A program made the position numbers and the translations under genes. A stretch of DNA of 64,000 bases, taken from positions 550-64,549 of the forward strand of contig CAZECR010000003.1 of the NCBI GenBank assembly GCA_964510495.1, given 5' to 3'. The DNA comes from an uncultured Gammaproteobacteria bacterium (GTDB lineage Bacteria; Patescibacteriota; Patescibacteriia; Magasanikbacterales; GWA2-37-8). Below are positions 1,337-45,226 of this stretch, piece by piece (positions within the stretch are counted from its first letter, which is position 1; each line of letters begins with the position of its first letter). Below the pieces are notes generated by a model, which did not search any database, had not been told where the DNA came from, and saw nothing but the letters and a program-made list of their open reading frames with translations.

Positions 1337-2203
1337 TTAAGGGTTGAGTAAGGCTTCCACTTCTTGCCAGGTGCGTACGACGAAGCAATTCGGCGCTTCG
1401 CTGAAGTACCGAAGGTCGTACACTGGAGTGTGCGAATTGGCGATGAGTATGCAGATGGGGTTGAGGTGGAGAAACCGCTGGCGGCCTGGGTGCAGGTCCA
1501 TGTCTGCATTGTCACCGATGAAGACGATTTTGTCTGCGCCGGCGCACAGGGGGTCGAGAACTCTAAAGAGACGCGGGCGCTCTGTTGGAATCGGGCGCTG
1601 GAGGTGCTGGTTGTAGCAGGCCTTTTCTGGCTCTATAACATGCCACTTGTCTGCGTCACCATGAACATGCTCCAGAAGCCAGGTAAGAGATTGCTCTGTT
1701 GGCAAGTTTTTAAACAGATTAGCCAGCTTTGTCTGAGCCTTGCTGGTAGGAGCATTGGTGACGACCTCGGTTGACCAGCCGGCATGTCGAAGCTTGTTAA
1801 GCGTCTCAGCGGCCCCTGGCTTGAGCTCGCTTACACCAAAAGGGTAGCTTTCTTTAAAGATGCGCTGGATTGTGGTGTGGCGAATGGTTGGGTCCATAAG
1901 CGCCCCACAAGAATCCAGGATCTCACCCGCGATGACGCTCGCTTTCAGAAGCTCATCGCAGGCCGAGGCAACGATGACCCCATCACGGAGCCAGCCGTAC
2001 AGATGCGGTGTTCCGTCGATGCGGGCATACCCCTTTTTATACCACTCCTTCATTTCTTCCCAGGTAATTTTTGACCTGAGTTCGGGGAGTTTGGCTAGTC
2101 GAAGGGTAAAAGCGACGGTAAAATTGCCTAATTCCTCCTTGCCTGGAAGCATGGCAATGATTGTTTCGTCGCAGTCCGCGATCAGCAAGCGTTTTGTTGT
2201 CAT
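1337..2203 (-). CDS. HAD-superfamily hydrolase, G+C-rich
   Basis: HAD motif I LLIADCDETII (DxDxT) and motif IV FIGDNADMD. ATG at 2203 is preceded by AGGAGCC. Start trimmed from the track ORF at 2332. Confidence 0.65.
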   Translation of the reverse strand: MTTKRLLIADCDETIIAMLPGKEELGNFTVAFTLRLAKLPELRSKITWEEMKEWYKKGYARIDGTPHLYGWLRDGVIVASACDELLKASVIAGEILDSCGALMDPTIRHTTIQRIFKESYPFGVSELKPGAAETLNKLRHAGWSTEVVTNAPTSKAQTKLANLFKNLPTEQSLTWLLEHVHGDADKWHVIEPEKACYNQHLQRPIPTERPRLFRVLDPLCAGADKIVFIGDNADMDLHPGRQRFLHLNPICILIANSHTPVYDLRYFSEAPNCFVVRTWQEVEALLNP

Positions 2204-2448
2204 GGTGGTAGGCTCCTTATTTTTCTTGCTTGCACGATAACAGCGTTTTTCCCCACTTGTCAACACCCTTGATTTTTTTGTAAAAATATGGTAGGGTTGT
2301 GGCAATTGAACGGTTCTTTCACAACCGCCCAACTATCGAGCCAATTTTTTGCGAAGATTATTGCGATTGTGAAAGAACCTTTTTATTTTTGCAGAATTGT
2401 TGGCCCGAACGGTTTGGGCCTAAAAAGAACACAAAAGGGGAGCGTGAC

Positions 2449-3609
2449 ATGACCAAATTTGAGCTCAAGAACGGTCTCAACGTGGCCAAGGTCTGGTTCC
2501 TTTTCGGGGCAGGCCTCTTCTTCTACGGGGCATTCATGGCCCTTATGGAGTACTGGAAGAAAGTCGGTGGTCTCCATCAGGCGACCATTTTCTTGAACAC
2601 GAGCGTGAGTGCGAGTTTCTCGGCCGGAATCATCGCTGCAGGAATTGTGGTCCGCTACTTTCGGCGGCACCGCAGCGAGATCCGCAAGATCAACAGCGTC
2701 ATGCCGGCACACCTCATCGTTGAGAGTGGTCTGCACACCGGCATCGTGGTCGGCTCGTCCAACGCTGTGTACACCAACACAGGTTGGGCGGTCACGGCTG
2801 GTTCGGGCCTCCTCAAGGGCCTTGCGCTGCAGTTCTCGGCCTTGGTCGACAATATCCTCGTCAAGGCTGGGCTCAAGAAAGCCCCCGATCCCACCAAGCG
2901 CCAGCTCGATACCTGGGCGCTGCGTGTCGCCCTCATCGGGATCGCCCTCATCGTCTGGGGTAAGCTTGATCTTAGCAAGCACTCGAGCCGTATGGGCATG
3001 CTCATCGTGCTCGTCTGCGCCTTCATCTACGCCGGCTCCTATGCTCGGCGCCAGTATCTGGCCGGTCGCTATCGAGTGCTGATCAATCGTCTCATCGAAG
3101 AGCTCCAGCTCACCACCGATGAGGCCAAGGTCTTCAGCGCCATCGCTGAAAAGTGGTGGTTCGCCCTCGAACAGCTGGCCTGCATGCTCTGTGTTGGCGT
3201 CATCTGTTCTGGCTTCGCGGCGCTCTATGCGTATGCCTGGGGTCAGGCCAAGTACCTTTACTTCGCGCCCTGGGTCTTCCTCTCGGGTATTCCGTTCGGC
3301 CTCATGAGCTATTTCGCCGTCATGATCATGGTGTCCGACTATCGTCTGCCAGGCGAAGATCAGCCTGCCTCCATGAAGGCACGCATGGTCATGACCAAGG
3401 GCCAGGGCATCGTCGCCTCACTCATCGGGCCTATCCCAGTGATCCTCTACTTCGGCCTTGACTGGCCCGAGTGGAAGGTCATCGCGGGTTCGCTTGTGGT
3501 GCTGTTCGCGGTGGTGATTCCGTACCTTCCGGATTTCGCCAGCCGTACCCTCGCGCAGCTCAAGCGTCTGCGCCGCAGCTCCACCCCAGCGACGGCGATC
3601 AACGGTTAA
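2449..3609 (+). CDS. Polytopic membrane protein, G+C-rich, unknown function
   Basis: MTKFELKNG start with AAAGGGGAG RBS. Many hydrophobic segments. The track ORF begins at an upstream GTG (2299). High GC produces many spurious overlapping ORFs on both strands. Confidence 0.55.
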   Translation: MTKFELKNGLNVAKVWFLFGAGLFFYGAFMALMEYWKKVGGLHQATIFLNTSVSASFSAGIIAAGIVVRYFRRHRSEIRKINSVMPAHLIVESGLHTGIVVGSSNAVYTNTGWAVTAGSGLLKGLALQFSALVDNILVKAGLKKAPDPTKRQLDTWALRVALIGIALIVWGKLDLSKHSSRMGMLIVLVCAFIYAGSYARRQYLAGRYRVLINRLIEELQLTTDEAKVFSAIAEKWWFALEQLACMLCVGVICSGFAALYAYAWGQAKYLYFAPWVFLSGIPFGLMSYFAVMIMVSDYRLPGEDQPASMKARMVMTKGQGIVASLIGPIPVILYFGLDWPEWKVIAGSLVVLFAVVIPYLPDFASRTLAQLKRLRRSSTPATAING

Positions 3610-3628
3610 GCTCTCCTCCCACCCCCCC

Positions 3629-3663
3629 CGGGCACCGGCAGCATCCACTGCTGCCGGTGCCCA
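3629..3663 (+). terminator. GC-rich hairpin after the membrane-protein gene (cgggcaccggcagc / gctgccggtgccc), no U-tract
   Basis: Inverted repeat read directly from the sequence. Confidence 0.4.
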
Positions 3664-3763
3664 GTCCTCCTCCCCAAACCCCTGGTAGCAAGCTCGTAAA
3701 CGACTTGCTTTTTTTAATCCATTTGCTATACTTGCCTTTGTTAAAAATTAGTGGTAAAATCTC

Positions 3764-3837
3764 GGGCAATTAGCTCAGTTGGTTAGAGCGTTACATTGAC
3801 ATTGTAAAGGCCACAGGTTCGAATCCTGTATTGCCCA
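3764..3837 (+). tRNA. tRNA-Val (anticodon GAC)
   Basis: Cloverleaf by eye: acceptor GGGCAAT/ATTGCCC, D-arm GCTCAGTTGGTTAGAGC, anticodon stem TTACA/TGTAA with loop TTGACAT, T-arm ACAGG-TTCGAAT-CCTGT. No encoded CCA. Confidence 0.85.
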
Positions 3838-3851
3838 CGTAGCCCAGACAT

Positions 3852-3925
3852 GGGCGTGTAGCTCAGATGGTTAGAGCGCGTCACTGATAATGACGAGGTC
3901 CCCGGTTCGATTCCAGGCACGCCCA
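3852..3925 (+). tRNA. tRNA-Ile (anticodon GAT)
   Basis: Acceptor GGGCGTG/CACGCCC, anticodon stem CGTCA/TGACG with loop CTGATAA, T-loop TTCGATT. One C-A mismatch in the T-stem as read by eye. Confidence 0.8.
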
Positions 3926-3996
3926 CATATATGCTTGATACTGTATCGAGCTCCCCTCAGTGTAAAAGATTGGCAGTTTAAAAATAAATACTTTTT

Positions 3997-5265
3997 ATGC
4001 CAAGAATGCGCGGACATGAACTCTTTGGCTTTACCGATCCTTCAGAAGAAGAGTACGCTCCCACTAACGAGGAGCTTAAAGGCGAAGATCGTGCGCGGCA
4101 AATAGTTTTAAACGAGCTTGCTGATATTGATCACGAGCTTGCTCGTCCTACTGAAGACAGATTTACAGGCGAAAAAAATAAATTCGCAGTAACTGATCCA
4201 GCTGTTTTTTGGGATCGTTTGGCATATCTGCGCATCGATCATATTGATACGATTAAAGATCCGGTAGTGCGCAAAGAACTGGACTCGCGCATTGCCATGC
4301 TTGAACAGCGTATTTATAAACAATTTGTTCCATTTATAGAATCACGAGTTGCCGTTTTTGGTCTCCAGCATTCTCCCCTAGAGAACAGCGTGTCGCGAAG
4401 AAAAATACAAGCGGCAGATATCGCCGAGCAATTTGAAGAAGCATACCGAGTGCTTGAGGTATTAAAAATTTCCGAAGAACAGCACTTTGATTTTTTGAAC
4501 GAACTCAATCGTTTACAAGAAAAACTCGATCGCTACCGCAGTGAGGTAACCCTCTTTACATTTGAAAAAATAGAAGAAGAATTGCATAGAGAATTTTACG
4601 ATCTAGAATACGGCGGCTGGTACTCACCGCCAGGGCAAAAAGCGCGACCGCTTGAAGATGCGCGGGCTACCAAAGAGCGGCAAATTGAACTGGATTTATT
4701 AGTAGCCAAGGCACATTCACTGAATCATATTGCCGAAAGAATGTTGCACGAACATATCCGGCTTGATTGCCAAGCGAGGAGCAAGAGTATTCTGGAGTGG
4801 GCTGAGTATTACAAAGCAAAAGCAGAAGCTCCACGCGAAATGTATATTTTGGAAGCAACGCTCAAGGAGCTTTTAGAAAAAGCCAAAAATAAGGAGGATA
4901 TTGACGAGCATAATTTTGAGCAGGCTAAAAAACGCCTTAATGACTTGGAGACGCAGCGGCTTGGTAGCGAAAGTGCCACAATGCTACCTATTTTGAAAAA
5001 ACTTATTCTGGCGATTGAACGCCAGCGAGCGGGTAATTCAACCGATGAGGACGAAGATCGTTTTACTGCTGAGAAAGGCGTGGACTGGGCTTGGGTAATG
5101 CTCGGCGTAGGACGAGATGCTTTGCAAGACGAGGTTAAAAAGGCCTATCACAGCCTTGCACGCACCTATCACCCCGATACGGCTAAAGTAGCGGACGCAA
5201 CAGAAAAAATGAAGCAAATTAATGAGGCTTACGAATTCGTGAAACGAGTAAAAAAATGGAAATAG
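3997..5265 (+). CDS. Protein with a C-terminal J-domain (DnaJ-like, HPD motif) and a long N-terminal domain of unknown function
   Basis: C-terminus VMLGVGRDALQDEVKKAYHSLARTYHPDTAKVADATEKMKQINEAYEFV is a canonical J-domain with HPD. Confidence 0.7.
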   Translation: MPRMRGHELFGFTDPSEEEYAPTNEELKGEDRARQIVLNELADIDHELARPTEDRFTGEKNKFAVTDPAVFWDRLAYLRIDHIDTIKDPVVRKELDSRIAMLEQRIYKQFVPFIESRVAVFGLQHSPLENSVSRRKIQAADIAEQFEEAYRVLEVLKISEEQHFDFLNELNRLQEKLDRYRSEVTLFTFEKIEEELHREFYDLEYGGWYSPPGQKARPLEDARATKERQIELDLLVAKAHSLNHIAERMLHEHIRLDCQARSKSILEWAEYYKAKAEAPREMYILEATLKELLEKAKNKEDIDEHNFEQAKKRLNDLETQRLGSESATMLPILKKLILAIERQRAGNSTDEDEDRFTAEKGVDWAWVMLGVGRDALQDEVKKAYHSLARTYHPDTAKVADATEKMKQINEAYEFVKRVKKWK

Positions 5266-5981: not shown

Positions 5982-7370
5982 ATGCAAAAAGTTAAAAAAT
6001 CTAAACCCGGTAAAATGTTTGAAAAACGACCTGTCGTCAAAAAAGAAGCGCCTGCTCCAGTAGCGACTGCTGGTGAAAAAAACAAGAAAGCCTACAACGT
6101 CGTGCGCGGTATGCACGACATTTTGCCAAAAGAAGAAAAGTATTGGCTTGCCTTTCAGCATGAAGCTGAAGAATTGGCTGAGTATTTTCAGTTTGGACGC
6201 ATCGAGACACCGATTCTCGAAGAAGCAAGCCTTTTTGTCCGTTCAATTGGGCGTGGAACCGATGTGGTTGATAAAGAAATGTATGTCTTTGAAGACAGGG
6301 ACGGTACCAAAGTTGCACTTCGCCCAGAAGCAACTGCTTCAGTTGCTCGTGCGTATACTGGTAACGGACTTTGGAATCAGGCCCAGCCCCTTAAGCTCTG
6401 GTACTTGGGACCCATGTTCCGCCATGACCGCCCACAGCAAGGACGGTACCGCCAGTTCAACCAGTTGGGATATGAAACTATTGGCGTAAAAGACCCAGCA
6501 ATTGATGCTGAGCTTATTTTAGTTGCCTATAATTTTTATAAGGATCTCGGTATTCCGGTTGAAGTTCGGGTTAACAGTATTGGCACGGTAGATGAACGTA
6601 ATCGGTATAAAACCGAACTTGTTAACTATTATCGCACGAAACGCAGCTATCTTTGTGAAGACTGTCGTCAGCGTCTAACCAAGAACCCCCTTCGCCTGCT
6701 CGATTGTAAAGAAGAGCAGTGTCAGCCCGTTAAAGAAGAAGCGCCACAAATTATTGACTGGCTTACTGAAGACTCCAAAAATTATTTCATGAAAGTATTG
6801 GAGTATCTTGATGAAGTTGGCGTTCCGTATGTCTTGGCCCCATTCTTGGTCCGTGGTCTTGATTATTACACCCACACGGTATTTGAAATTTTTGCCACAG
6901 AAGCAGAAAATGCAGGCAGCCAAAGTGCGCTCGGCGCTGGTGGTCGCTATGATCTTTTGGTTGAAGAGCTCGGTGGTAAACCAGCTCCGGCAGCAGGTTT
7001 TGCACTTGGCCTTGAACGAGCCATTTCTGTCATTAAACAGCAGGGGCAGAACCAGTCACCCAAGTTTGCGGAGAAAAAACCACACGTGTTTTTTGCCCAG
7101 CTTGGTGAAGAAGCCAAACGCCGCGGTCTTAAAATCATTAATGAGCTTAAAGGAAGCGGTCTGCGCATTGCCTACAACTTCTTTAAAACATCGCTCAAGA
7201 CGCAACTTGAAGCAGCAAACGCTCAGGGTGTTGCGTATGTTTTGATTCTTGGTCAAAAAGAAGTTCAGGACAAGACGATTATTATTCGTGATATGGAATC
7301 GGGTGTGCAGGAAATTGTTGATCAGAAAAAAGTTGAACCGGCACTTAAAAAGAAATTAGGGCTGGTCTAA
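5982..7370 (+). CDS. hisS: Histidine--tRNA ligase
   Basis: Class II aaRS motifs (MHDILP, ALRPEATASVARAY, GGGRYDLLV) and anticodon-binding domain. Lys-rich N-terminal extension; the first ATG is at 5982, and the track ORF starts at TTG 5955. Confidence 0.9.
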   Translation: MQKVKKSKPGKMFEKRPVVKKEAPAPVATAGEKNKKAYNVVRGMHDILPKEEKYWLAFQHEAEELAEYFQFGRIETPILEEASLFVRSIGRGTDVVDKEMYVFEDRDGTKVALRPEATASVARAYTGNGLWNQAQPLKLWYLGPMFRHDRPQQGRYRQFNQLGYETIGVKDPAIDAELILVAYNFYKDLGIPVEVRVNSIGTVDERNRYKTELVNYYRTKRSYLCEDCRQRLTKNPLRLLDCKEEQCQPVKEEAPQIIDWLTEDSKNYFMKVLEYLDEVGVPYVLAPFLVRGLDYYTHTVFEIFATEAENAGSQSALGAGGRYDLLVEELGGKPAPAAGFALGLERAISVIKQQGQNQSPKFAEKKPHVFFAQLGEEAKRRGLKIINELKGSGLRIAYNFFKTSLKTQLEAANAQGVAYVLILGQKEVQDKTIIIRDMESGVQEIVDQKKVEPALKKKLGLV

Positions 7371-7430: not shown

Positions 7431-7474
7431 ATGCATATTAATTACGTAACTCCTTAGAAAGGGAGGTGAACTTT

Positions 7475-7717
7475 GTGGCTGAAATCAAACGAAAGAAAAC
7501 CGAGTCCTTTGAGGCCTTCATGCGTCGCGTTAAAAAACGCTGGCAGCAGTCCGGTAAAATTTTACAGGTCAAGAAGATTCAATTTTACGACGGCGGAAAA
7601 AGTAAAAACATGCGTCGCAAGAGTGCTCTGCACAAACTCGGCGTAGCCGGTAAGATCGAATATCTCAAAAAAATTGGACGTCTTCCAGAAGAACTTGGAA
7701 GAAATTTCAAACGGTAA
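7475..7717 (+). CDS. rpsU: 30S ribosomal protein S21
   Basis: AEIKRKKTESFEAFMRRVKKRWQQSGKILQVKKIQFYD aligns to the S21 consensus. GTG start 7 nt after AAAGGGAGG. Confidence 0.8.
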   Translation: MAEIKRKKTESFEAFMRRVKKRWQQSGKILQVKKIQFYDGGKSKNMRRKSALHKLGVAGKIEYLKKIGRLPEELGRNFKR

Positions 7718-7752: not shown

Positions 7753-9774
7753 ATGCTTCAATGGATCAAACAAAATAACATGACGCTTCGAAAAACTGCC
7801 ACGGTCTTGGGGGTACTGTTAGTGGCAGTTTTTTCGTTTTTAAAACTAGCTCCTGCCCTGGCTCAAACTACTGTTGCACCAGAAGCACCAGTTGATACTG
7901 GTATCGAAGTTGTGCAGCAGCCGTCAGGCCTGGCAGCAACCGATATTCGTCAGATTATCGCTACCATTATTCGAGTAGCGCTTGGGCTTTTGGGTATTAT
8001 TTTACTTGGTCTCGTTTTGTATGGCGGTTATTTATACATGACTGCGGGCGGCAACGAAGAACAAGTAAGCCAAGCAAAAACTATTTTACGCAACGCTGTT
8101 ATCGGTCTTATTATTATTCTTAGTGCGTACGCTATTGTTACCTTTGTCTTGCGCGCACTCGGCCTTGGACAAGGAGCAGGTGGGGGAGACCTGGGCGGTA
8201 TTAACGGCACAGGTACCCAAAATTTTAATGGCAGTGGGGCACTCGGTGGTATTATTAAAGATCATTATCCAACTCGTGACCAGGTGGGAGTAGCCAGAAA
8301 TTCCAAAATTATTATTACATTCCGTAAGGCTATTAAAGTTGATAGTTTTGTTAAAAATACCAATCAAAGTAAAGATGCCAGTGGAAATGAAATTTTTGGT
8401 GACTGTATTAATATTGGGGTTAACATGAACTGGAAAACCGATTGTGACGCGCTTACCCTAGACGCAGATCACATTGCTATTACTCGGGCAGACACTGGGG
8501 CGGCTATTACTGGCGCAGCAGTCTTGGCTACCTACCAAGACGGTAAGGCGTATACCATTGTTATTAGGCCGTATGACTACTTGGGCTCAGGCACAGACAA
8601 AATTGCCTATAAAGTTCATATGGGTTCGGCAATTCAACTCGACGATGCTGCCAACAACAATCCTTCAGCCTTTCAGGTGAGTAGCCTCGGGAAAAATTAT
8701 TACGAATGGCAGTTTACCTGTAGCACCGAGCTCGACACTACGCCGCCAATTGTAAACAGTGTTTTCCCGTCAGATGGTGCAACGGAATCAAAAAATACGG
8801 TTATTCAAATTGATTTTAATAAAGCAATGGACCCGACAGGTATCCAGGGAACATTCCGTGATGGCTCCAATAGCTATGTTCTTGATGGTAATACTATTTT
8901 TCTAAAGAATAACAAAAGTACTATTCCACTTGGAACATTTAACCTGACTAACGGGTATCGCACGCTTGAATTTACTTCAACTAAAGAATGTGGTCGCAAT
9001 GCTTGCGGTCAGCCTATTTATTGTCTGCCGGTCTGTGATACGGCAAATGATCCTACCTGCAAACAAGATGATTATTCACTCTTAGTTAAAGCTGGCCGCA
9101 CGTTTAGCGCTTCGTCATTTGAATCAATTCCTTTTTCTGGAGCTATGGATGTTTCGGGTAATGCCCTCGACGCTAACAAAAATAGTAAAGTAGATGTTGC
9201 CCCGACGACAGGTGATATTTTCACCGTTCAGAATAAGCCTGATAACTATTCATGGGGTTTTACTGTTAAGGACGAAATTGATAATACTGCGCCGTATCTC
9301 ATGCAGGTTACTCCTGGACTTGATGCTGAATTTGTTGCTCCAAAAGATGATGTTACTATGCTATTTAGCAAGCGAATGCGTGTAGAGCCAATGTATGGTA
9401 TTGATTTACAGCAATCACTTGCGAATGCCGAGCCGCTCTGTCGCACGCCACGCCTGAATTTCAACGCAAATAATACAACGCTCACCACGCTAACCCACTG
9501 TCCTTTTCCAACTAAAGATGGGGCGAATTTTTATCCTGTACTTACTTCTGCGATCGAAGACGTGCACTATAACTGTTTTTTCCCAGGCAAAGGACCGGGA
9601 GGAACAACCGAAGTTAACAAGCGTCTTAAGGAATCCTCGCTGTGTAGTAGCGATGGTAAGAACTGCTGTCCGGTAGAAGCAGTTGGGGCAGGTGCGTTTT
9701 GCTGTAATGGGGTTGTTGTTCCAAATGTTGCGAATCAGGCTCAATGTTTGCAATATTTAAAATCGACTCCGTAG
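7753..9774 (+). CDS. Secreted/membrane surface protein with an N-terminal VirB2/TrbC-like pilin module and an SbsA-type Ig-like domain
   Basis: Signal peptide, then two hydrophobic helices flanking YGGYLYMTAGGNEEQ. A downstream segment NSVFPSDGATESKNTVIQIDFNKAMDPTG looks like Big_5/SbsA_Ig. An alternative ATG is at 7780. Confidence 0.7.
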   Translation: MLQWIKQNNMTLRKTATVLGVLLVAVFSFLKLAPALAQTTVAPEAPVDTGIEVVQQPSGLAATDIRQIIATIIRVALGLLGIILLGLVLYGGYLYMTAGGNEEQVSQAKTILRNAVIGLIIILSAYAIVTFVLRALGLGQGAGGGDLGGINGTGTQNFNGSGALGGIIKDHYPTRDQVGVARNSKIIITFRKAIKVDSFVKNTNQSKDASGNEIFGDCINIGVNMNWKTDCDALTLDADHIAITRADTGAAITGAAVLATYQDGKAYTIVIRPYDYLGSGTDKIAYKVHMGSAIQLDDAANNNPSAFQVSSLGKNYYEWQFTCSTELDTTPPIVNSVFPSDGATESKNTVIQIDFNKAMDPTGIQGTFRDGSNSYVLDGNTIFLKNNKSTIPLGTFNLTNGYRTLEFTSTKECGRNACGQPIYCLPVCDTANDPTCKQDDYSLLVKAGRTFSASSFESIPFSGAMDVSGNALDANKNSKVDVAPTTGDIFTVQNKPDNYSWGFTVKDEIDNTAPYLMQVTPGLDAEFVAPKDDVTMLFSKRMRVEPMYGIDLQQSLANAEPLCRTPRLNFNANNTTLTTLTHCPFPTKDGANFYPVLTSAIEDVHYNCFFPGKGPGGTTEVNKRLKESSLCSSDGKNCCPVEAVGAGAFCCNGVVVPNVANQAQCLQYLKSTP

Positions 9775-9800: not shown

Positions 9801-12800
9801 GTGCAAAGGCTGGCGCTCAAAAAAATACTATTTACGGTCTGTTTTACTCTGGTGGTTACTCTCGGCTCCCTAACGGCGCTGTGGGTTGTGCATGCTGCAA
9901 CGCCTGCACTTGATGTTGGTCTTAATGGCGATGTAGCGGCTACAACGGGTCTTGCAACTACGGATGTGCGATTGGTAGTGGCTCGAATAATTCGTACCGT
10001 TCTTGGACTTCTCGGTATTATTGCCCTGGTGATCGTTCTGTACGGTGGTTTTTCCTATATGACTGCCGGTGGAGATGATGAAAAAGTCGGTAGTGCCAAA
10101 AAAATCTTAGTAAATGGTGGTATTGGTCTTCTCATCATCCTTTCTTCGTACGCAATTACCAGTTTTGTTATTAGTCGTTTGGTCTCCGCGACTACTGGAG
10201 TAGACAATGGTCAAAACTGTACCGGACCAAATTGCACCGATGGGTCAGGAGGTTCGGGAACAGGTTTTAACGCCTCCGGAAATGCTTTTTATGTTTCGAG
10301 TCTTCCATCTAATGGAAATCTTTGTATTCGCAATGTTCATCCGTCAGTAGTATTTAGTAAAGAAGTTGATATAGCAACTCTGTCAGGAAATGTTGTGGTT
10401 TCCGCAGTGGGCGGCTCGGCTGTTTCAGGAAAATGGGAGTACGGAACAAAAAAGGCTGTGGTGTTTTTTGTTCCAGTGGGTGACTGCGCTCCAAGTACGG
10501 GTCAGGATTGTCTCCTACCAAAGACATCGTACACTATTACTTTCCAGAATCCTTCAGCAATCAAGAGTGCAGACGGTACACAAAGTCTTAACTGCAGTAT
10601 TAAAGGTGGCTGTGGACCAGTAACATTTACAACAGGTGAAGGCGTAGATCGCTTGCCTCCTCAAATTACTATTACCGAGCCTTTGGCGAATGCTAGTTTT
10701 CAGGCCGGAGTAGCTATACCAGTGACTGTTTCGTATACAGACGACAACGGTATTCAAAATGTTTCGGTGTATCAGGGTGCAGCTGTGGTTGGTAGTAAAT
10801 CCGTTAATGGTTGTCAAAAAACTGGCTCAGTCGAACTCAGCTGGGTTACCGGTGGTTTAGACGCTGGCGCTTATACCTTGCAAGCCCTCGGTACAGATTG
10901 GAGCGGGGGACAAGACACTAAAAATATTGCAGTAAATCTTAAACCAAATCACTGTTTTAATAATCAATTAGAGGCAGACCTTGGTGAAAAACAAGTCGGA
11001 CCTACTGCTTGCGGTGGAGAATGCGGAAGCTGTGCAGGCGAAAGTTGTACGGCAAATGCCGACTGTGGCAGTGGTTTTTGCCAAGTCCCAGCGGGTGGTG
11101 GAGCAGGTGTCTGTATTCAGCGCACTACCGTTAACGGTCTTTCACCCAACTCAGGCGCGCCTGGTACTTTTGTTACTGTTTCAGGAAAGTATTTTGGTTC
11201 AACTGGACGTATTTATTTTGCAGCTGTTGCCAATCCAAACATTACTAAGGAAACTGATTGGGTGGAGGCTAAGGCGGTTAGTTGTGGAGCTGGTTTTAAC
11301 AGTTGGTCTTCATCGCAAATCATAGTTGAAGTTCCAGCCAATGCTGTGCCAGGGCCTGTTGCTGTATTTTCGGGCGCAGCTACGCTTAAAGCAGCTGCTA
11401 CGGCCAATACTTCTTTATTTGATACAACACGCGATGCCTGGGGTCCATTGGTTGGAGATTTTACTGTAAATGACGAAGTGCATCCGAGTATTTGTGCGCT
11501 TAATCCCGCTGTTGGCAAAAGTGGTTCAGCGATAGCATTAATTGGTAAAAATTTTGGCCTACTTTCTACAACTGCCAATCAAGTTACCTTTGGTACCGCG
11601 GTAGCAGTTACTCGTCCAAACGATTGGGTTGATGCTCTCATTAAAACAACAGTCCCTAATCTTGAACAAGGCACTGTAACTGTTAGAGTTACTAGCAATG
11701 GCCGCCAGAGTAATGCTGTAACTTTTTCTGTTCAAGAAGGGGCAAGTGAAACTGCGCCATTTATTAATACTATTAGCACCACTTCGGGAGCACGAGGCGA
11801 ATATATTACCATCTCCGGTCGCAATTTTGGTAGTAAATTGGGAGCAGTCTGGTTTAAAGCAGCGCCAACCAGCGAAGCAATCCTGGGTAGTTTTGATTTT
11901 CCGGATAGCTGCCAGGCAGCAGTGTGGCGGGACGATCAGATTATTGTTAAATTCCCACTCGATAAAGGGTCGGTTGGCACTAGTTATTTACTCCAGATTA
12001 AAACAGCCGATGACGCAGTCAGCGCGATTGATTCTAATACAACCTTTGCACTTATTGCCGGCACTCCTAACCCGGGTATTTGTAAAATTTCTCCTCTATC
12101 TGGAACTGTCCCTTTTGCCGCGGGTCAAGTACTAACCTTGAGCGGTGAATATTTTGGTACACAGCCAGGTATTTATTTCTGGAAGGCTAGTGCGAATACA
12201 GCCGATATGAGCAGCCGTGCCCTCACAGCCGCCACTGATATCACGTCTAGAAGCAATAGTACAATTAGCCTTCGTCCACCGGCTGGCGCTCAAACTGGAC
12301 CGGTCGTGGTAGTTCGCGGTGAAGATAGTAAAGTAAGCAATCCAATAAATTTTACGGTTGGTAGTTGTGTTCAAAATAACAATACTTGTCCAGTTTCTGG
12401 GTACACCTGCTGTAGTAGCGGAGCTGATGCAGGTTCCTGCAAACCCGCTGGTGAGCTTTGTTCGCAGGGGGTGCGCTCTGCGGGGTATGTCTGGCGCTTT
12501 AGTTCTGCTGCGATTCCAGTTGTGCCGCATGTTGTTGAGCGCTGTGATGCCGGTACCGATCAAGGAAGAAATTTACCTTCACCATCCCCAAGTATTCAAT
12601 GGGATCAAAGTGCTAATGGCGACAGTCACAATGTGTGCCGTACCGCTTTGGCCACAGTTGAATTGACTGCTTTGATTGATCAAAAAACAGTAACCAAAGA
12701 CACGGTCATTGTTAATAAATGTTCCGGGGTCGATGAAAAGAATAATTGTCTTAATCCAGTTCGTGTTGATCTTACGACCGATAGCTATGGAGTAAAAACT

Positions 12801-15800
12801 GCTATGACGGATAGCGGGGGATCTCCGCATGCGTTTTTGCAAGTTGGTCCTGCAACTCGCTCGTGGGAAGATAATACCTGGTATCAAGTTGCCCTGACTT
12901 CTGGTATCCGCTCGGCAGGCAGTGCTAGTAGCACAGCTTTGGCGCTCGCTGCTGATCGACCGTGTCAAATTGCCGGATCGGCCTATTGTTATGTTTTTAA
13001 AACTGATACAAAAAATTGTGCTCTCAAAGCAGTGGTTGTAACACCCTATAGTTATTGGACTAAGGTACTGGAGTCTCCAATTAAATTGCGTACAAGTGCC
13101 GGTAGTGCTACTGAATTGTATTATCGTGGAAATGGGCTTAGTAATCAGCGTTGTATCATGATGGACGTGAGCGGGTTTAACTGGCAGTGGAACAGCGAGA
13201 ATACTGGGTATGCTGCGATGTATGGGTCGGTTAACGCACCAGTTTCTCAGGTTTCTGCACTTGCCAACACCGTAGCAATCGGTCTCACTAACCCTGATGA
13301 AGCCATAAATATTGTGGCTGTAGCAAGTACCGGTACTGCTTCGTACGCCGGAAAAAGTCCGCTTACAATTGACCTGAGTGACCCAGGTGTGGTTGATTAT
13401 TGGCCGAGATGTCTTGAAGCCTGTACCAACGCTGAAGTTGCGGTGCGTTTTAACACCACAATGTCGCTGCGTAATCTTCCTGGAACGATTCAAGGCGGTA
13501 GTGTGCAACTTTTGAAATGTACTGATGAAAATTGTTTAAGCACGCAGTCAGTTGTAAATCTTAACGACATAACGCTTGATCCAACAAGTAATTATTCAGT
13601 ACTTAAAATTGCCAATTCATTGACGGGTTCTCAATTACTTGAACCTAATACGCTTTATAAAGTTGTTGTCTCAACCGCCTCAACAGACCCGGCTGCGGCA
13701 ACTAACCAGCTTTGGTCGGCCGCCAAACTCAATGATCCTCAGACTTCGAGCAAGCCTTTTAATCAAGAGTTTACCTGGCGTTTTAGAACTAAAAATGGAC
13801 AATGCCAAGTTGATAAAGCGGTAGTAAATCCTCCAGAATTTTTTGGAAAATCAATTGCGGAAAAGACTGTCTATACTGTTCAGCCCTACGCTGCTCCAGA
13901 TAGCTGCAGTACCCAAGGTCAAAAACTTAATCCTTGGTCCGTAAGTTGGAATTGGAGTTCAGCTGATTCCAAGGTGGCATCCGTTACCTCATTTAGTACT
14001 AAGGGAAATAACCCGTCATGTACTCCGAGTTGTATTCGCAAAGGTAGTGATGTTCCGGCGACTCAGGCTAATGTAGTACCTGTATGTGGTAATGGTAAAG
14101 TAGAAGCAGGTGAAGATTGTGATGGGCCAGATAGTGCTAAAGGTTGCGCGCTCAATTGTTTGTTTGCAGGCAACACTGCTGCAACTTGCGGTAACGGTAT
14201 TGTTGAACCAAATTTAGGCGAAGCCTGCGATCCAAAAGATCCTAAAACTGCTACCGGCTGTAGTCTTAGTTGCCGCCATCTTGGTTCTTCGGTAACCACT
14301 GATGCTTCTAATACAAATGCTTCAATTTGTGGCAATAGTAGTATTGGAAGTGGAGAAGACTGCGACACTGGTATTACAAAGAGTGTAGCTAATCCATTGT
14401 CACAGCTTAACTGTTCTCAAAAATGTTTGCATACTGGATCGCGTTTGTCTAAGCAGTGGTGTATTGCTAACGCCCTTACTCGAGGTGGTTTTTCAGGCAC
14501 GGAGTTTGATGCGGCTTGTGGGCTCAGCTTCAGTCAGTGTGGCGATCGTGTTTTAACTCCTGATGAGGATTCTGGCTGTGATGATCCAAATACTGGTTGG
14601 AATAGCGGTGCGTGTACCCAGTATTGTCTGAAGAAAACTTCAACAGAATGTGTGCCAGGAACAGAAGGTTGTGATGCTAATGGTCGTCATACCGGTTCGT
14701 CCCTCCTCTACAGTACTCCATCATCATGTGGAGATGGCACCGCAGGTACTGGTGAAGACGCTGTTTGTGAAACTGGCTTAGTAATTAATCATAGCGGACT
14801 TATTGACCCGTGGACCCTGGCTACAGGAGTTGGTTTGGGCACTCCAAAAGGAGTTCCAGCCGCTCAAACCACTTTTGTAAAAGCTGTTACTAATCAGAAT
14901 AATCGTTCGGTAAGCGGAAGCGGTGTATTTAGTGTTGCCTGTGGGTACCAAACTGATCTCGATTGTAAACGAACTTTTGGTAGTGATTACTCTGTTGGAG
15001 AAAATACCTGTTGTTACAGAAAGCCTGGCCTCATAAGCACCTATCCTGCCAATAACGCAGCTACAGTTTGTCCTAATACATATCTCGAAGCTGTTTTTGA
15101 TAGTAAAATTGATGAAAATACTCTCACCGGAAACGTGCTTATTGCTCGTGGTGGCAACACTACTTGTGCCGCAGGCCAACAAGATGTTACGAATTTGATT
15201 GCGCGCACCGAGAGCTACATCGCTCTACCTTGGTATAAAAAAGTACTGGCTCAGGCAGTCGCAGCATTTAAAAATGTCTTCCTAGGCTCTGATGTTGCTG
15301 CCCTAGTCACTCCTGTTACTAATTGGTGCGTAGGTCAAGATATTGGGGTGGCACGTGTGGCGCCAGTTGTTGGAGCCCCTACATCAACGTCACGAATCAG
15401 CATTCAAATTAACACTCCGCTGGCCTTTACAACAGATTATGCCGTTATTCTTAAAGAAGGAGTGAAGGACACTAACGGTGTTAGTATTGGTAAACTTGCT
15501 ACTAAAAATATTAGCTGGCACTTTTCGACGAGCGATAAAATTTGCGAAGTTAACAAAGTCACCGTCAATCCTCCGGAATGGTCATTCTCCGTTGCCAATG
15601 CTACAACGACCCTTGAGGCTGCTGCCTTTACCTCAAACGGCTCGAAAGTACAGCCAATTCCTGGATTCTATGACTGGCAGTATCGCTGGGGACCAATAGA
15701 CAATCCTTATGTTTCTTTGCAAACAACTAATACCACCCTTAATGTAATTACTGCTCAAAATCGCAACGGTGAGATTGATCTTCGAGCTGAAGCAAATATT

Positions 15801-31177: not shown

Positions 31178-31295
31178 GCGCTTCCCAAGGAGACAACCGA
31201 CACTGCTCTTCTGCCCCAGGAAGGCAAGGTGTGTGACGCGTCTGTCTCCGTTTCTACTTTGGTAGCAATGATTGTTAGAAGAGTAGAGAAGGCTT

Positions 31296-34977: not shown

Positions 34978-35025
34978 GTCGTCGTCGGCGAGGAGCGCCG
35001 ACGACGGGTGGTGTGAATGGATCTC

Positions 35026-35466
35026 CTAGCGCAGCGCTGTGGCAAAGCTATCTATGTCTGACTTCGGCTCTGCCGAGAAGGCGAAGATGACTGTGTGGAG
35101 CCGGGGTGTAGCGGCCCTCATGTTCGCGATATGCTGCTCGAGGGCGCTCTTGACCCGCAGACAGATGTCGTCCCAGAGGTTCAGGAAGCGCGGCATTGGA
35201 ATCATGACCGCACCCATGCCGTCTGCTTCGGCCTCGGTGAGGCACTGCAGCACAGCGCGCTCGACCTCCTCGTAGCACTGGCCGCTGTCGTACTCGGTGG
35301 TCGACACGAGGCGATCGTTGGCCTGGGGATTGGCTCGCTCCCACTCTATGCATTCAATGGCGGAGGAGCTGAACCCGATCTCGGCGATTCGATCGGTAGG
35401 CACCCCTGCGTCGGTGACTGTGATAACGATGGTCAGGGGACCCATGTTCATCGTATGTCCGCTCAT
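35026..35466 (-). CDS. Hypothetical G+C-rich protein (147 aa) inserted between two GT4 genes
   Basis: GGAGG RBS 5 nt before the ATG (complement of 35464-35466). Open frame in GC-rich DNA; no recognised motif. Confidence 0.45.
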   Translation of the reverse strand: MSGHTMNMGPLTIVITVTDAGVPTDRIAEIGFSSSAIECIEWERANPQANDRLVSTTEYDSGQCYEEVERAVLQCLTEAEADGMGAVMIPMPRFLNLWDDICLRVKSALEQHIANMRAATPRLHTVIFAFSAEPKSDIDSFATALR

Positions 35467-37781: not shown

Positions 37782-37985
37782 AGATGTATATTATTCCTGT
37801 AGTATAACGATTTTCTTCGTATGTTACCAGCAGCAAAGCGTGTGTGGATAACTGTCTTGACGCCCCTCAAAACTGTTGGTACGTTAGGAAAGTTAAAAAA
37901 ATATGGAACATTCTTTAAGTTTCAATTGCCAGAACCTTTCCAAGGTCAATCCAATGACCCGCATTTTTGTATGCGATCTTTGGAC

Positions 37986-38070
37986 AACGGGTGATTATAC
38001 CGAAAGCTTGAAGTAAAAAATAAAAAAGCTTTTCATTAATCACCCGAGGCCCCAAGGCAACGGGTGATTT
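37986..38070. repeat. Local repeat cluster: caacgggtgatt at 37986 and 38059, with its reverse complement aatcacccg at 38036, forming a hairpin with a 14-nt loop
   Basis: Direct string matches. Lies at the left edge of a G+C-rich islet. Confidence 0.4.
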
Positions 38071-38183
38071 TATTTAAGAGTCGTTCTTTACAAATGTGTG
38101 GCCCTTTCGCTTGAGTTCATAGATGTGAATTGAAGCGAAGGGGCTCGCAATCACGCCGCCCTGACATTTATCGGGAGGATTCG

Positions 38184-38552
38184 ATGACCGCAGCCGAGAA
38201 ACACGCAAAGCACTTTCCCAACTGCACCCATGCCCTGGCCGGCACTCAGTCAGAGGACTACGCAGTGGTTTTGAAAACAGGTGTGCGGTGCCGCGCCTGT
38301 AGCGAAATCTTCAATGATGATTGCCAGATTCAGATTGCCAGAACCGAAAGGATCGTCACGAGCCACCTCGTCGACCTTGAGGTCATCCGGCAGATGATCA
38401 AAGACCTCCGTGGCAGACCGGGCGGGGAAGCCATGATCGATCAGATCATGAGTGATAACCGCGATCATCCTGATTGCACAGCGATTGAGCAGGTGATCGA
38501 GGAGGTCAGAAAAAGGCCGGTGAGCAATCCGGAGATGGCTCGAGTGGCGTGA
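38184..38552 (+). CDS. Hypothetical G+C-rich protein with an N-terminal Cys/His cluster (possible zinc ribbon)
   Basis: GGGAGG RBS followed by ATG 38184; C..H...CRAC pattern. It is followed by a nested inverted repeat at 38562-38625. Confidence 0.45.
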   Translation: MTAAEKHAKHFPNCTHALAGTQSEDYAVVLKTGVRCRACSEIFNDDCQIQIARTERIVTSHLVDLEVIRQMIKDLRGRPGGEAMIDQIMSDNRDHPDCTAIEQVIEEVRKRPVSNPEMARVA

Positions 38553-38701
38553 AAACGCGTGTATCGTCTAGAGTAGTAGCCGGTGTCCTTCGGGACGCGG
38601 CGCTGCTCTAGACGATCGTTCAGCTCTGTACAAAAATATTTTTTGCCCACAGCCGAACTAACTTCTCTTTGAACATAGTCTTTGCTATACTGAAGAAAGC
38701 T

Positions 38702-40676: not shown

Positions 40677-40750
40677 GGGCACTTAGCTCAGTTGGTTAGA
40701 GCATCTCGTTTACACCGAGAGGGTCGAGGGTTCGAATCCTTCAGTGCCCA
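40677..40750 (+). tRNA. tRNA-Val (anticodon TAC)
   Basis: Acceptor GGGCACT/AGTGCCC, anticodon stem TCTCG/CGAGA with loop TTTACAC, T-arm GAGGG-TTCGAAT-CCTTC. Confidence 0.85.
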
Positions 40751-40756
40751 CACATA

Positions 40757-40787: not shown

Positions 40788-40970
40788 TTATACCCTTGAC
40801 GGAGTAGCAAAAAAGTGGTACCCAACAATATCCATAAAAATTGATTGTTCTTTTGATTGTGCAATAGTTTTGAACCGTTAAGGAGCAGGGGGCAGTGTGC
40901 AGTATCACGATTGGTACGACGCACTGCCTTCTGTTTCGAAGTTTCCACCCTCTTCTCCAGGAGAAGTACG

Positions 40971-41540
40971 ATGCCCTCGAAAGTTCCTCCGTTTTCCACA
41001 GTGAACCTGTTCTGTTTTGCAACGCTCCATGAGCTGAAGCCCACCAAGCGACGCGGTCCGACTATGCTCGCTGGCACCCGGGTGCGGGCGCTGTTCGACC
41101 AGCGCCAAGACCTGGTCGTTCCGGGGGTTGTGGTCATCTCGTCCAAGGCGAAGGGTGACGCGCTTGCCTTGCTGGACGGGATGCGTGTCGCCGCGTCAGT
41201 CGTGCGCAAGCCACTTCTACCGCCGCCCGCGCAGACTACACTCTGCCGCGATGCCATGAGCGCTATCCGCGCGAAGAGCCTGCCCTCCCTGCTCGTCGTG
41301 GCGGATCCCCTCACTCTTTTTACCTTCCTCGATGAGGCAGTGATGCTTCCGGAAGGGTCGAGCTGGCTTATCTACTACCAGGAGGCTTACCCACGCATAA
41401 TGGGGTCTTTGTATCAGATTGAGGTCTCGTTCAACGAGCGGGGAGCAAGGGCGGTCAGCATGCTCAGTCACGGCAACATGACGGGCGACCGGGTGCGTGG
41501 AGGCGGGTCGCTTATCCCTGCTATGGCGCGGGCGGCCTAG
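40971..41540 (+). CDS. Hypothetical G+C-rich protein (189 aa) immediately downstream of tRNA-Val
   Basis: AGGAGA RBS followed by ATG 40971. Followed by a GC hairpin + T-run at about 41570-41600. Confidence 0.45.
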   Translation: MPSKVPPFSTVNLFCFATLHELKPTKRRGPTMLAGTRVRALFDQRQDLVVPGVVVISSKAKGDALALLDGMRVAASVVRKPLLPPPAQTTLCRDAMSAIRAKSLPSLLVVADPLTLFTFLDEAVMLPEGSSWLIYYQEAYPRIMGSLYQIEVSFNERGARAVSMLSHGNMTGDRVRGGGSLIPAMARAA

Positions 41541-41667
41541 GTACTATTTCTCAATTTTCGCGCTCTTTCGTCGGCGGCCAGGTTCTCTGGCCGCCGTTCT
41601 GTTTTTAAAAACAATCTGTAATAAAAAGTAAAAATACGCTATACTATATGCATATTTATTTTTTTTC

Positions 41668-44238: not shown

Positions 44239-44250
44239 AACGGTATTTTA

Positions 44251-44284
44251 GAACCATTCCTGAAAGGGAATGGTTCTTTTTTTG
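44251..44284 (+). terminator. Intrinsic terminator gaaccattccc-tgaaa-gggaatggttc + TTTTTTT after metK
   Basis: 11-bp stem followed by a U-tract. Confidence 0.8.
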
Positions 44285-44315
44285 CTAGAAATAAAGGTTA
44301 TTTTGAGACTATCCT

Positions 44316-44344
44316 TGACAAAGCACCTAAAAAGTGCTAGGTTT
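44316..44344 (+). promoter_or_regulatory. Promoter TTGACA-17-TAGGTT. The spacer contains the palindrome AGCAC-ctaaaaa-GTGCT (44323-44339).
   Basis: Read from the sequence upstream of the G+C-rich gene 44465-45151. Confidence 0.4.
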
Positions 44345-44464
44345 GTTCGTCGTTCTTTTACAACAAGGTGTTTTTCGTCAAGTGTTTGTTGCAACGAATT
44401 TCTGACGAAACGCACCTTACTGTCTCGGTGCCAAGAATCCAAAACTCTCTCGGGGAGGTGTTCC

Positions 44465-45151
44465 ATGTCCGGAGCCACAGCTTCTTCCACAACCCATGAT
44501 TTCGTTCCTGCGCCTGATCGGGTAGGACGAAAGCTGCGAATCGGCATGTCTTTGCAAGAGTGGCTTCAGGAAGAAGAAGCCGAACTTCAGCAGCAGATCG
44601 TCGATCTGCGTCTCAAAGTCGAGCAGGCTCAGCGTGAGCTGGGAGCTGCTCGCGCAGAAAATGCCGCGCTCAGTGTTCGTGCCGTAGCCACCACCACTGC
44701 CCTCGCCCAGACAAAACAGCGCCAGGAAAGGCTCGTCAGCGAGCTCGTAGTGTTGCGGCAGCGTGCTAGCCGTACGGCCAAGGAGCATACCCAGGTCCTC
44801 CTGCGCGAGCTCGATGAGACAGCACGTCTCAGGAGCCAGCTGCGGGGTGCGCGTTCCGCCACCCTCACCTGGGCGCTCTTCACCCTGCTCGTCACTGCGC
44901 TCGGGGCGCTCGGTTTCTTCGGTGTTTATCAGCCGCTTCTTGCAGACAGAGCGGGGTTACGCCGCGAACTCACCGCTACCCAAAACAAGGAGGCGCTCGC
45001 CACCGCCAATCAGGCAGTGGATCAGGGCGCTATCGCACGCCTGCAGCTCGAGAACGCCGGTCTCCGAAGTGTCATCGATCGAGCAGCGCAGCAGCAGCCC
45101 ACGCCCGTAGCGTGCGTCAAGAAGGCCAAGAAGAATCGGAAGCGGCGCTAG
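44465..45151 (+). CDS. G+C-rich coiled-coil protein with a C-terminal TM helix and a basic tail
   Basis: GGGGAGG RBS followed by ATG 44465. Heptad-like EAELQQQIVDLRLKVEQAQRELGAARAENAAL. TM helix LTWALFTLLVTALGALGFFGVY. Confidence 0.5.
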   Translation: MSGATASSTTHDFVPAPDRVGRKLRIGMSLQEWLQEEEAELQQQIVDLRLKVEQAQRELGAARAENAALSVRAVATTTALAQTKQRQERLVSELVVLRQRASRTAKEHTQVLLRELDETARLRSQLRGARSATLTWALFTLLVTALGALGFFGVYQPLLADRAGLRRELTATQNKEALATANQAVDQGAIARLQLENAGLRSVIDRAAQQQPTPVACVKKAKKNRKRR

Positions 45152-45226
45152 CGCCCTCTGCACGACGGCCGTACTTACATCATCCCACCAGAGCCAAGAG
45201 AAAAACTTTTGGTTCGGCTCGGGTCA

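Follow-up and report, generated by a model that had tools for sequence, protein, structure and literature searches.

The vlsE gene of Borrelia and its silent cassettes form a G+C (GC)-rich antigenic-variation locus in an A+T (AT)-rich, reduced genome. Classical ORFans are more AT-rich than the genome that carries them and often derive from phages, and bacterial ORFans as a whole are, reportedly since Daubin and Ochman in 2004, short, fast-evolving, lineage-restricted genes. Integron cassettes join a single open reading frame (ORF) that looks promoter-less to a 3' hairpin element and lie downstream of a resident promoter. Genomic islands of Patescibacteria have atypical composition, patchy presence and mostly unknown functions and are exchanged mainly within the phylum, and detectable transfers in groundwater Patescibacteria mostly stay inside it (PMC12455944). 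According to three papers (Jha et al. 2021, PMC7797042; McNutt et al. 2023, PMC9976891; Naeem et al. 2026, PMC13000453), Bacteroidia translate in a manner blind to the Shine-Dalgarno sequence (SD), with autoregulation of rpsU; bS21, bS18 and bS6 together sequester the anti-SD of 16S rRNA, SDs are missing from the genes, and in Flavobacteriales rpsU is essentially the sole gene with a strong SD (PMC9976891). Here we describe eight GC-rich genes, the islets I1 to I8, which lie at six loci and span positions 1337-45151 of a stretch of 64,000 nucleotides (nt; hereafter the window) of contig CAZECR010000003.1 (GenBank assembly GCA_964510495.1). We read the islets, with a probability of roughly 0.55, as long-kept, fast-evolving, lineage-private accessory genes that sit in fixed slots and are translationally distinct, and not as recent foreign imports.

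Like ORFans, the islets are short, have no outside homologues, show high nonsynonymous divergence (dN) and are frequently gained and lost, but they are about 15 points more GC-rich than the genome; no viral relatives of I1, I2 or I5 were found in three viral scans (including IMG/VR), and a phage origin was rejected on this ground and for want of a notable PHROG family. As in Borrelia vls, hypervariable genes have a GC content well over that of a low-GC, host-dependent genome; islet variation, however, is seen between genomes, and no vls-type silent cassettes, paralogues, GC skew or excess of G runs were found in the window. The single ORF, 3' hairpin and resident promoter recall integron cassettes, but islets are scattered and not arrayed, no integrase, attC/attI sites or GTTRRRY-type cores were found, and the islet hairpins have no common sequence. 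The islets are like the genomic islands of Patescibacteria in all the respects given above, but they are single-gene units in fixed slots with conserved native promoters and with no mobility genes or att sites found, their GC content is above that of the genome and persists through saturating divergence, and they use SDs uniformly in a genome otherwise without them.

Two gene classes in the window

The window holds two gene classes that are fully separated in third-position GC content (GC3), SD energy and the base at -1. Its overall GC content is 0.448, and long segments with a GC content of at least 0.54 are confined to the islets. Islet ORFs (n = 8) have a GC content of 0.536 to 0.624 and a GC3 of 0.616 to 0.820, in the order GC3 > GC1 > GC2 expected of real coding sequence (CDS), and native ORFs have a GC3 of 0.31 to 0.46; pooled GC1/GC2/GC3 values are 0.60/0.45/0.72 for islets versus 0.53/0.42/0.375 for native genes. 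At four-fold degenerate sites the islets favour C (0.43) over G (0.27), T (0.18) and A (0.13), and in native genes T (0.38) prevails, followed by A (0.23), C (0.22) and G (0.17). Islet proteins contain more Arg, Ala and Leu and less Lys, Asn and Ile than native proteins.

The first ATG of all eight islets sits 4 to 9 nt past a GGAGG, AGGAG, GGAG or GAGG motif. Islets pair with the anti-SD at -7.2 to -12.3 kcal/mol, against a median of +0.2 for the 37 native genes compared, without any overlap of the two distributions (Mann-Whitney U = 0, p = 6e-6); against the full 16S tail, islet SDs reach -7.4 to -14.7 kcal/mol. Since only 4% of 18-nt windows within islets reach -7.2 kcal/mol, GC richness alone is insufficient to explain SDs in eight of eight genes. 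Native initiation regions are poor in complementarity to the anti-SD (6% at -5 kcal/mol or below versus 37% of mock CDS windows, p = 4e-4). Among the 35 native starts used for context counts, 29 have T at -1, as against one of the eight islets, and 26 have C or G at -2, downstream of an AT-rich leader (e.g., the starts at 3997, 23310, 24754 and 26937); no enrichment of A at -3, the upstream-adenine, Kozak-like context, was found in these 35 starts. The exception among genes of native GC content is rpsU (7475-7717), which has a very strong SD.

The GC-rich unit comprises SD, CDS and 3' hairpin, whereas the DNA that holds the promoter-like sites and 5' leaders is AT-rich, and GC richness ends at the unit boundaries. 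A reading made beforehand from the letters alone (the sequence-only reading) had described at least seven such islets, with strong SDs 5 to 8 nt before the start, in a genome whose native genes mostly lack them. The pattern holds for all eight genes, and every region it listed is real; the count is precisely eight genes at six loci, and the spacing is 4 to 9 nt. It was also right that ftsZ, nrdR, pyk, glyA and metK have no SD, that two islets lie beside tRNA genes (I2 ends 154 nt before tRNA-Val(GAC)/tRNA-Ile(GAT), and I7 starts 219 nt after tRNA-Val(TAC)) and that hairpins accompany the islets, a GC-rich one being found within 80 nt 3' of each of the eight.

Islet slots in related genomes

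The GC-rich class is lineage-restricted, positionally conserved and fast-evolving, is gained and lost as single units and has no mobility signatures. The window was compared with three sister genomes, GCA_964540825.1 (loci L003, L007 and L008), GCA_964634875.1 (L011) and JGI 3300045379 (L013), whose core proteins are 74-99% identical to those of the window, and with an outgroup, GCA_023246715.1 (L096), whose core proteins are 25-75% identical. A further locus, L098, shares its source metagenome with L013, has flanks 80-84% identical to those of the window and L003, and is probably an ingroup member. In the three sister genomes, the five slots A to E and the I1/I2 locus hold small GC-rich, SD-led genes without Pfam families. 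Identity to the occupant of the same slot is 41% for I1 (L003; 53% in P0016/L097 and 27-32% in L098), 94% for I2 (L003; 68-70% in the outgroup L096 and 24% in L098), 61% for I3 (L008, with distant orthologues in L013 and L011), 69% for I4 (L008), 25% for I5 (25-27% in L008/L013, which are 52% identical to each other), 38% for I6 (L013) and 36% for I7 (L008). In database gene calls from five related loci, an SD of -7 kcal/mol or below precedes 71% of the genes with excess GC3 versus 12% of the rest (p = 3e-6), and the excess-GC3 genes without one are mostly obvious miscalls of the start site; T is at -1 in 12% of the excess-GC3 genes versus 76% of the rest.

Occupancy varies between genomes. 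Slot B (I5) has no occupant in L011, nor do slots D (I7) and E (I8) in L013; in L008 and L011, GC-rich, SD-led but unrelated genes occupy slot E, L008 carries one extra gene in slot A, and I1 is absent from L096. DNA alignments to the three sister genomes stop precisely at the islet CDSs, and leaders, promoters and hairpin stems are 75-92% identical. No target duplication was found on comparing empty with occupied sites, no direct repeats or copies of tRNA ends were found around any islet, and neither an integrase or transposase within or beside the islets nor att sites were found.

When the window is compared with GCA_964540825.1, the dN of core genes is 0.01-0.2 and their synonymous divergence (dS) is saturated at 0.9-2.6. 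For I1, I3, I5 and I7, dN is 0.3-0.9 and dS is saturated, and the GC content of four-fold sites is still 0.6-0.9 in both genomes, so that silent sites were replaced without loss of the GC bias. A bias retained at saturation is unlike a decaying import, unless every genome re-acquired its own copy. Native GC is retained in n288, a native gene that evolves fast (47-55% identity), and speed alone therefore does not make genes GC-rich. I2 behaves differently from core genes, with a dN of 0.03 and a dS of 0.29 (dS > 0.86 in all core genes); it is 94% identical to its counterpart in L003 but 24% identical to that in L098, although core distances are similar, and its tree is incongruent with the core tree. 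In the outgroup L096, I2 stands beside the orthologous left neighbour with a GC3 of 0.91 and the SD AAGGAG. Judged from these comparisons, I2 appears to be old in the lineage, and alleles appear to be exchanged or replaced within it.

Chimeric assembly was excluded. In independent Logan assemblies of run SRR12762304, one contig (L001) joins the native flank to I1 and I2 (99.7% identity over 3.7 kb), and another (L005) runs from the tRNA side through I7 to the amino-acid transporter and crosses both I7 junctions (5 mismatches in 2.4 kb); the same islet architecture was found in four other genomes from different samples.

Deep searches for outside homologues were made with I1, I2 and I5, and I3, I4, I6, I7 and I8 were compared with family libraries and with the fetched loci. 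A word-indexed search of 5.8 billion proteins with the I1, I2 and I5 families returned only members of their own Patescibacteria clade. When 1.84 billion representatives were searched exhaustively by HMMER with a profile of I2, again only the own clade came up; the one cluster below 1e-10 was I2's own, and the best of three weak matches was the L098 gene. In a metagenome scan, the I1 family had two relatives at 25% identity, one (from Hainich groundwater) a GC-rich (0.56), SD-led islet in a contig of 35% GC and the other of native low GC. The sequence-only reading had proposed that single small genes were imported repeatedly from a high-GC donor, which could be the host lineage of an episymbiont. 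Atypical composition, single-gene units with their own transcription signals, and gain, loss and replacement stand from that proposal; the foreign donor does not, as searches with I1, I2 and I5 gave only the own Patescibacteria clade, and the sister slots are homologous. Best-match taxonomy (I1, I2 and I5) was uniform and was that of the native lineage, the outcome which that reading had itself named as speaking against it, and no positive evidence was found for the host lineage as a donor, an idea left without support.

Individual islets, their neighbours and the host lineage

Coordinates are collected in the table. No family of Pfam, NCBIfam, PHROG or PADLOC was found for seven of the eight islet proteins, the exception being a weak HAD match of I1 (25.7 bits to PF00702, slightly below the cut-off of 26.4), and a sequence search of the PDB with I1, I3, I5 and I7 gave no useful match. 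A defence-system identity was rejected, as PADLOC gave no match. The catalytic motifs I-IV of the HAD superfamily (DxDxT, S/T, K, D/GDxxxD) are present in I1 as D10, D12, T14, T149-N150, K186 and D231 and are invariant in four sequences of 26-53% identity. I3, I5, I6 and I7 have no recognisable sequence features. An AlphaFold2 (AF2) model of I5 from a three-sequence alignment (predicted local distance difference test score, 67.5) gave macro domains as the top Foldseek matches in the PDB (E about 2e-5, template-modelling score 0.55-0.65), a weak lead with a root mean square deviation of 5-8 A, 10-15% identity and no match at the sequence level.

Features of the islets, rpsU and adjoining elements (positions in the window; a dot marks a feature without strand)
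Feature	Position	Strand	Properties
I1, HAD-type phosphatase-like, 288 aa	1337-2203	-	GC 0.54, GC3 0.62, AAGGAG SD 9 nt before ATG
I1 GC-rich 3' hairpin	1301-1329	-	
AT-rich control region shared by divergent I1 and I2	2234-2387	.	two promoter-like sites and an inverted repeat
Promoter-like TTGACA-17-TATCGT, I1 side	2234-2263	-	
Promoter-like TTGATT-17-TAGGGT, I2 side	2269-2297	+	
25-nt inverted repeat AATTGAACGGTTCTTTCACAACCGC / GCGATTGTGAAAGAACC...	2304-2328 / 2363-2387	.	in the I1/I2 control region
I2, multi-helix membrane protein without known family, 386 aa	2449-3609	+	GC 0.59, GC3 0.78, SD GGGGAG
I2 terminator-like GC-rich hairpin	3630-3662	+	
tRNA-Val(GAC) and tRNA-Ile(GAT), native neighbours of I2	3764-3926	+	
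rpsU, divergent bS21, 80 aa, GTG start	7456-7717, gene 7475-7717	+	native GC 0.42
Extended SD of rpsU, AGAAAGGGAGGUGA	7456-7469	+	
I3, 123 aa	gene 30238-30609, 3' hairpin 30212-30231	-	GC 0.54, GC3 0.69, SD GAGG
I3 promoter-like TTGACA-18-TAAACT	30660-30631	-	
I4, predicted lipoprotein, 132 aa	unit 30671-31249, gene 30779-31177	+	GC 0.62, GC3 0.82, SD AAGGAG
I4 promoter TTGACA-17-TAGAAT; 3' hairpin	30671-30699; 31189-31249	+	
I5, 146 aa	gene 35026-35466, 3' hairpin 34980-35006	-	GC 0.61, GC3 0.78, SD GGAGG
Conserved 37-aa small ORF MEHSLSFNCQNLSKVNPMTRIFVCDLWTTGDYTESLK	37903-38016	+	promoter 37857-37885, intrinsic terminator 38038-38075
I6, 122 aa	unit 38100-38616, gene 38184-38552	+	GC 0.56, GC3 0.67, SD GGGAGG
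I6 leader hairpin, directly 5' of SD; 3' hairpin	38100-38144; 38563-38616	+	
tRNA-Val(TAC) upstream of I7	40677-40751		
I7, 189 aa	unit 40796-41596, gene 40971-41540	+	GC 0.62, GC3 0.74, SD AGGAG
I7 promoter-like TTGACG-17-TACCCA; terminator hairpin	40796-40824; 41572-41596	+	
I8, coiled coil and one transmembrane helix, 228 aa	unit 44315-45289, gene 44465-45151	+	GC 0.62
I8 promoter TTGACA-17-TAGGTT; 3' hairpin	44315-44343; 45226-45289	+	structured AT-rich leader of about 120 nt

The order I1-I2-hairpin-tRNA-Val-tRNA-Ile is identical in L003 and L098. The region 2221-2448 between the divergent genes is about 91% identical to L003, and the flank 1255-1336 is 82% identical to it, though the I1 CDS is unalignable as DNA. 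The inverted repeat in the control region (2304-2387) could be an operator or a leader structure. The leader hairpin of I6 (38100-38144) shows several compensatory base-pair changes across four genomes. A riboswitch or attenuator 5' of I6 was considered and rejected: the 85%-conserved, seemingly non-coding stretch is explained by the conserved 37-aa small ORF with its own promoter and terminator, the DNA of which is 76-86% identical across four genomes, with synonymous changes and no Pfam or Rfam match, and compensatory changes are confined to the hairpin at 38100-38144. A leader motif GTTCTTTNACAA seemingly shared by several islets was also discarded (6 matches versus 2.5 expected; 3 of 100 shuffles reach 6, not significant). 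The SD of I8, GGGGAGGUG, has an energy of -12.3 to -14.7 kcal/mol. In L013, a gene for an ECF-type sigma-70 factor of near-native GC (6258-6881, minus strand) replaces the I4-type gene in slot A; the window has an ECF sigma factor of its own, with a DUF5667 protein, at 48014-49921.

A 422-aa gene of native GC (3997-5265, plus strand) with a C-terminal DnaJ domain sits between the genes for tRNA-Ile and signal peptidase; it is missing at the L003 site, so accessory variation also occurs with native composition and without an SD. Pyruvate kinase (26937-28349, plus strand) has 470 aa in the window and L008 and 353-362 aa in L011/L013, is 74% identical to L008, the lowest value among the enzymes, and has a mildly GC-rich (0.54) 3' part (27901-28200).

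The host, judged by its genes, is a Patescibacterium, of the candidate phyla radiation (CPR), close to Magasanikbacteria. In a scan of 185,579 species genomes, the nearest relatives of a native glycosyltransferase gene of family GT4 were in metagenome-assembled genomes (MAGs) of Patescibacteria, the nearest named one being Candidatus Magasanikbacteria GW2011_GWA2_37_8 (60% identity). Proteins with T4SS_pilin domains (one of 3376 aa) and Wzy_C-TPR proteins, typical of CPR, are encoded nearby. Orthologues of the giant 3376-aa protein (9801-19931, plus strand) and of a 673-aa protein (7753-9774, plus strand) carry T4SS_pilin, Big, TIG and Laminin_G domains, and the two are probably cell-surface or attachment machinery of an episymbiont. 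Many third-party annotation (TPA) MAGs (L016-L019 and others) bear the title 'uncultured Gammaproteobacteria bacterium', although their gene content and synteny clearly place them in the Patescibacteria; they are evidently mislabelled.

GC-rich genes are common in distant Patescibacteria loci, and 9 of 10 larger ones have no Pfam family. Genes 10-25 GC points over background were seen in L018, L026, L027, L039, L044 and L096; an 869-aa protein of MopE-type metal-binding repeats is the exception with a family, and some of these segments lie at contig ends and could be mis-binned. The relatives of the GT4 gene also include high-GC Patescibacteria (GC 0.61-0.67; L029, L035, L043, L047 and L048), which are a possible source pool of the islets. 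SD usage in the high-GC loci is noisy, with unreliable start sites, and some may use SDs.

Translation, origin and meaning of the islets

The extended SD of rpsU, AGAAAGGGAGGUGA, pairs with the 16S tail GAUCACCUCCUUUCU at -18.3 kcal/mol (13 pairs, one bulge), within the range of -14 to -21 reported for rpsU of Bacteroidia, and the rpsU initiation region is identical in L003. The 20 best PDB matches of the product are all bS21, co-linear over residues 2-54 (E 0.0026-0.13), and its sole Pfam match is PF01165, a weak one (E 0.06). The anti-SD motif is missing from about half of Parcubacteria 16S genes (PMC9297842). At the 16S 3' end in L003, L098 and L096 we found the canonical anti-SD, ...GGAUCACCUCCUUUCU, and SDs are therefore able to pair. 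That 3' end lies just left of the I1/I2 locus in these relatives (L003 1-50; L098 1-35; L096 about 7457-7512), which places the islet pair and a variable ORF between 16S and tRNA-Val/tRNA-Ile. Retention of the anti-SD (here in sister genomes), depletion of SDs in native initiation regions and a bS21 gene with an extended SD are thus shared with Bacteroidia; the phylum is a different one, and, unlike in Flavobacteriales, eight accessory genes within 45 kb are also SD-led, at -7 to -15 kcal/mol. The anti-SD pocket of Bacteroidia is formed by the C-terminal region of bS21 with bS18 and bS6; a comparable pocket may exist here, where bS18 and bS6 lie outside the window. No paper mentioning bS21 together with Patescibacteria was found in the literature searched. 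The presence of a Bacteroidia rpsU-type signature in this Patescibacteria lineage suggests, without proving it, that the islets are a translationally distinct set.

Class 1 comprises the native genes, with low GC3, no SD and T at -1, and a class 2 unit is small and self-contained, joining a native-looking AT-rich promoter and leader to a canonical SD and to a CDS and terminator hairpin that are both GC-rich. On the reading that we favour, such units would be inherited in fixed intergenic slots across the genus, and in the case of I2 beyond it, and would turn over as they diverge rapidly in place, are lost or give way to distant alleles out of the lineage's own pool. We infer that the islets are long-term residents drawn from that flexible pool; they would probably be conflict or host-interaction genes. 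As islet mRNAs are GC-rich and have no native initiation context, they would depend on pairing of SD and anti-SD for translation, and since the anti-SD is kept in the sister genomes and rpsU has a strong SD as in Bacteroidia, standard ribosomes plausibly ignore SDs to a large extent. Islet genes, like rpsU, might then be read preferentially by a subpopulation of ribosomes with a free anti-SD, which makes a translationally separate set plausible. Their GC may be kept high by selection that acts on the mRNA, by exchange with high-GC Patescibacteria or by biased gene conversion. A bolder version, which we hold to be a long shot, would be convergence on the solution of Bacteroidia: standard ribosomes would hide the anti-SD and serve native mRNAs alone, which are AT-rich and without SDs, ribosomes without bS21 would read SDs with the whole GC-rich private gene class as clients, high GC would be selected as silencing on standard ribosomes, and ribosome composition would be the switch for host-interaction or conflict genes of an episymbiont.

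Several points weigh against our reading of the islets as resident genes that are translationally distinct. Some mechanism would have to hold GC3 at 0.6-0.9 inside a genome with a GC3 of 0.37, and GC3, the Arg/Lys ratio, canonical SDs and hairpins with weak U tracts give the islets the look of genes from a genome of about 60% GC. The low dS of I2 and the sharp boundary of divergence between I1 and I2 indicate that transfer or recombination occurs. In a polarised substitution test, GC-to-AT changes in I2 exceeded AT-to-GC changes 12:1 and 13:1; slow amelioration would fit these ratios, but we regard them as uninformative because the outgroup, saturated and GC-rich (89% GC at the sites), confounds the test. 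The searches reached depth with I1, I2 and I5 only, and the word-indexed one is non-exhaustive, having missed the 41%-identical I1 of L003. On the side of translation, bS21 was identified through weak, though unanimous, sequence matches; the sequence of the 16S 3' end comes from sister genomes, that of the window genome lying outside the window; and the native start context is T at -1, not the upstream adenines of Bacteroidia.

An alternative is that each genome independently filled its insertion hot spots, time and again, with single genes taken up horizontally from a donor of high GC, be it the host or a different high-GC organism (high-GC Patescibacteria among them), the genes bringing their own SD and terminator. 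Besides the composition, amino-acid usage, SDs and GC-rich hairpins of a genome of about 60% GC, such import would fit the presence/absence polymorphism in sister genomes, the dS of I2 (0.29, well under core genes) and its incongruent tree, the two loci that adjoin tRNA genes and the high-GC Patescibacteria among the GT4 relatives, some of which may use SDs; the report that detectable transfers into Patescibacteria have mostly other Patescibacteria as their source (PMC12455944) points the same way. We nevertheless consider import rather unlikely. No homologue of I1, I2 or I5 was found beyond the clade, the search being exhaustive for I2, and seven of eight proteins without a family would be unexpected if they came from ordinary high-GC bacteria; the same slots are filled by homologues in four genomes and in the outgroup, leaders and hairpin stems are conserved in or beside the GC-rich unit, promoters lie within conserved native AT-rich DNA, and no integrase, att site, target duplication or repeat of a tRNA fragment was found. 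Of the hallmarks of horizontally acquired islands, the islets show atypical composition and patchy presence, and mobility signatures and, for I1, I2 and I5, foreign closest homologues were not found.

GC-biased gene conversion at recombination hot spots under diversifying selection, with SDs as a secondary trait of structured GC-rich mRNAs, would explain the sharp boundaries (the I1 CDS against its adjoining 91%-identical region), the discordant dS of I2, allele replacement and a GC enrichment that peaks at third positions and ends at unit boundaries. We regard it as improbable: alleles of 25-60% amino-acid identity are too divergent for heteroduplex formation within the CDS, the conserved flanks, where crossovers would be expected, are AT-rich, and the fast native gene n288 keeps native GC. 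Effects of biased gene conversion in bacteria, moreover, are reported as a few percent of GC3, not +0.35. An artefact, in the form of chimeric reads from a co-binned high-GC organism or of non-coding GC-rich DNA with chance ORFs, might be suspected as GC-rich DNA is poor in stops and each islet has several overlapping ORFs in other frames, but it is effectively refuted by the junction-crossing Logan assemblies L001 and L005, by the architecture repeated in four genomes from different samples, by the order GC3 > GC1 > GC2 with correctly spaced SDs and conserved ORF length, and by dN/dS ratios of 0.1 (I2) and 0.3 (I4) together with the invariant HAD catalytic motifs of I1.

Both flexible islets of single genes and SD-poor translation with an autoregulated rpsU are known; what is unusual here is that the orphans are GC-rich and not AT-rich, that their composition outlasts saturating divergence and that a CPR genome has a Bacteroidia-like rpsU signature. 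If the pattern is genome-wide, a CPR lineage would have two compositional and two initiation regimes that coexist over evolutionary time, which would contradict the usual view of atypical GC as a recent import that is soon ameliorated. The hallmark of Bacteroidia, with an anti-SD that is kept, native SDs that are absent and an extreme SD of rpsU, would then extend to Patescibacteria, and the lineage would offer a natural test bed for specialised ribosomes. Callers of horizontal gene transfer or genomic islands that rely on composition will systematically call such resident CPR genes foreign.

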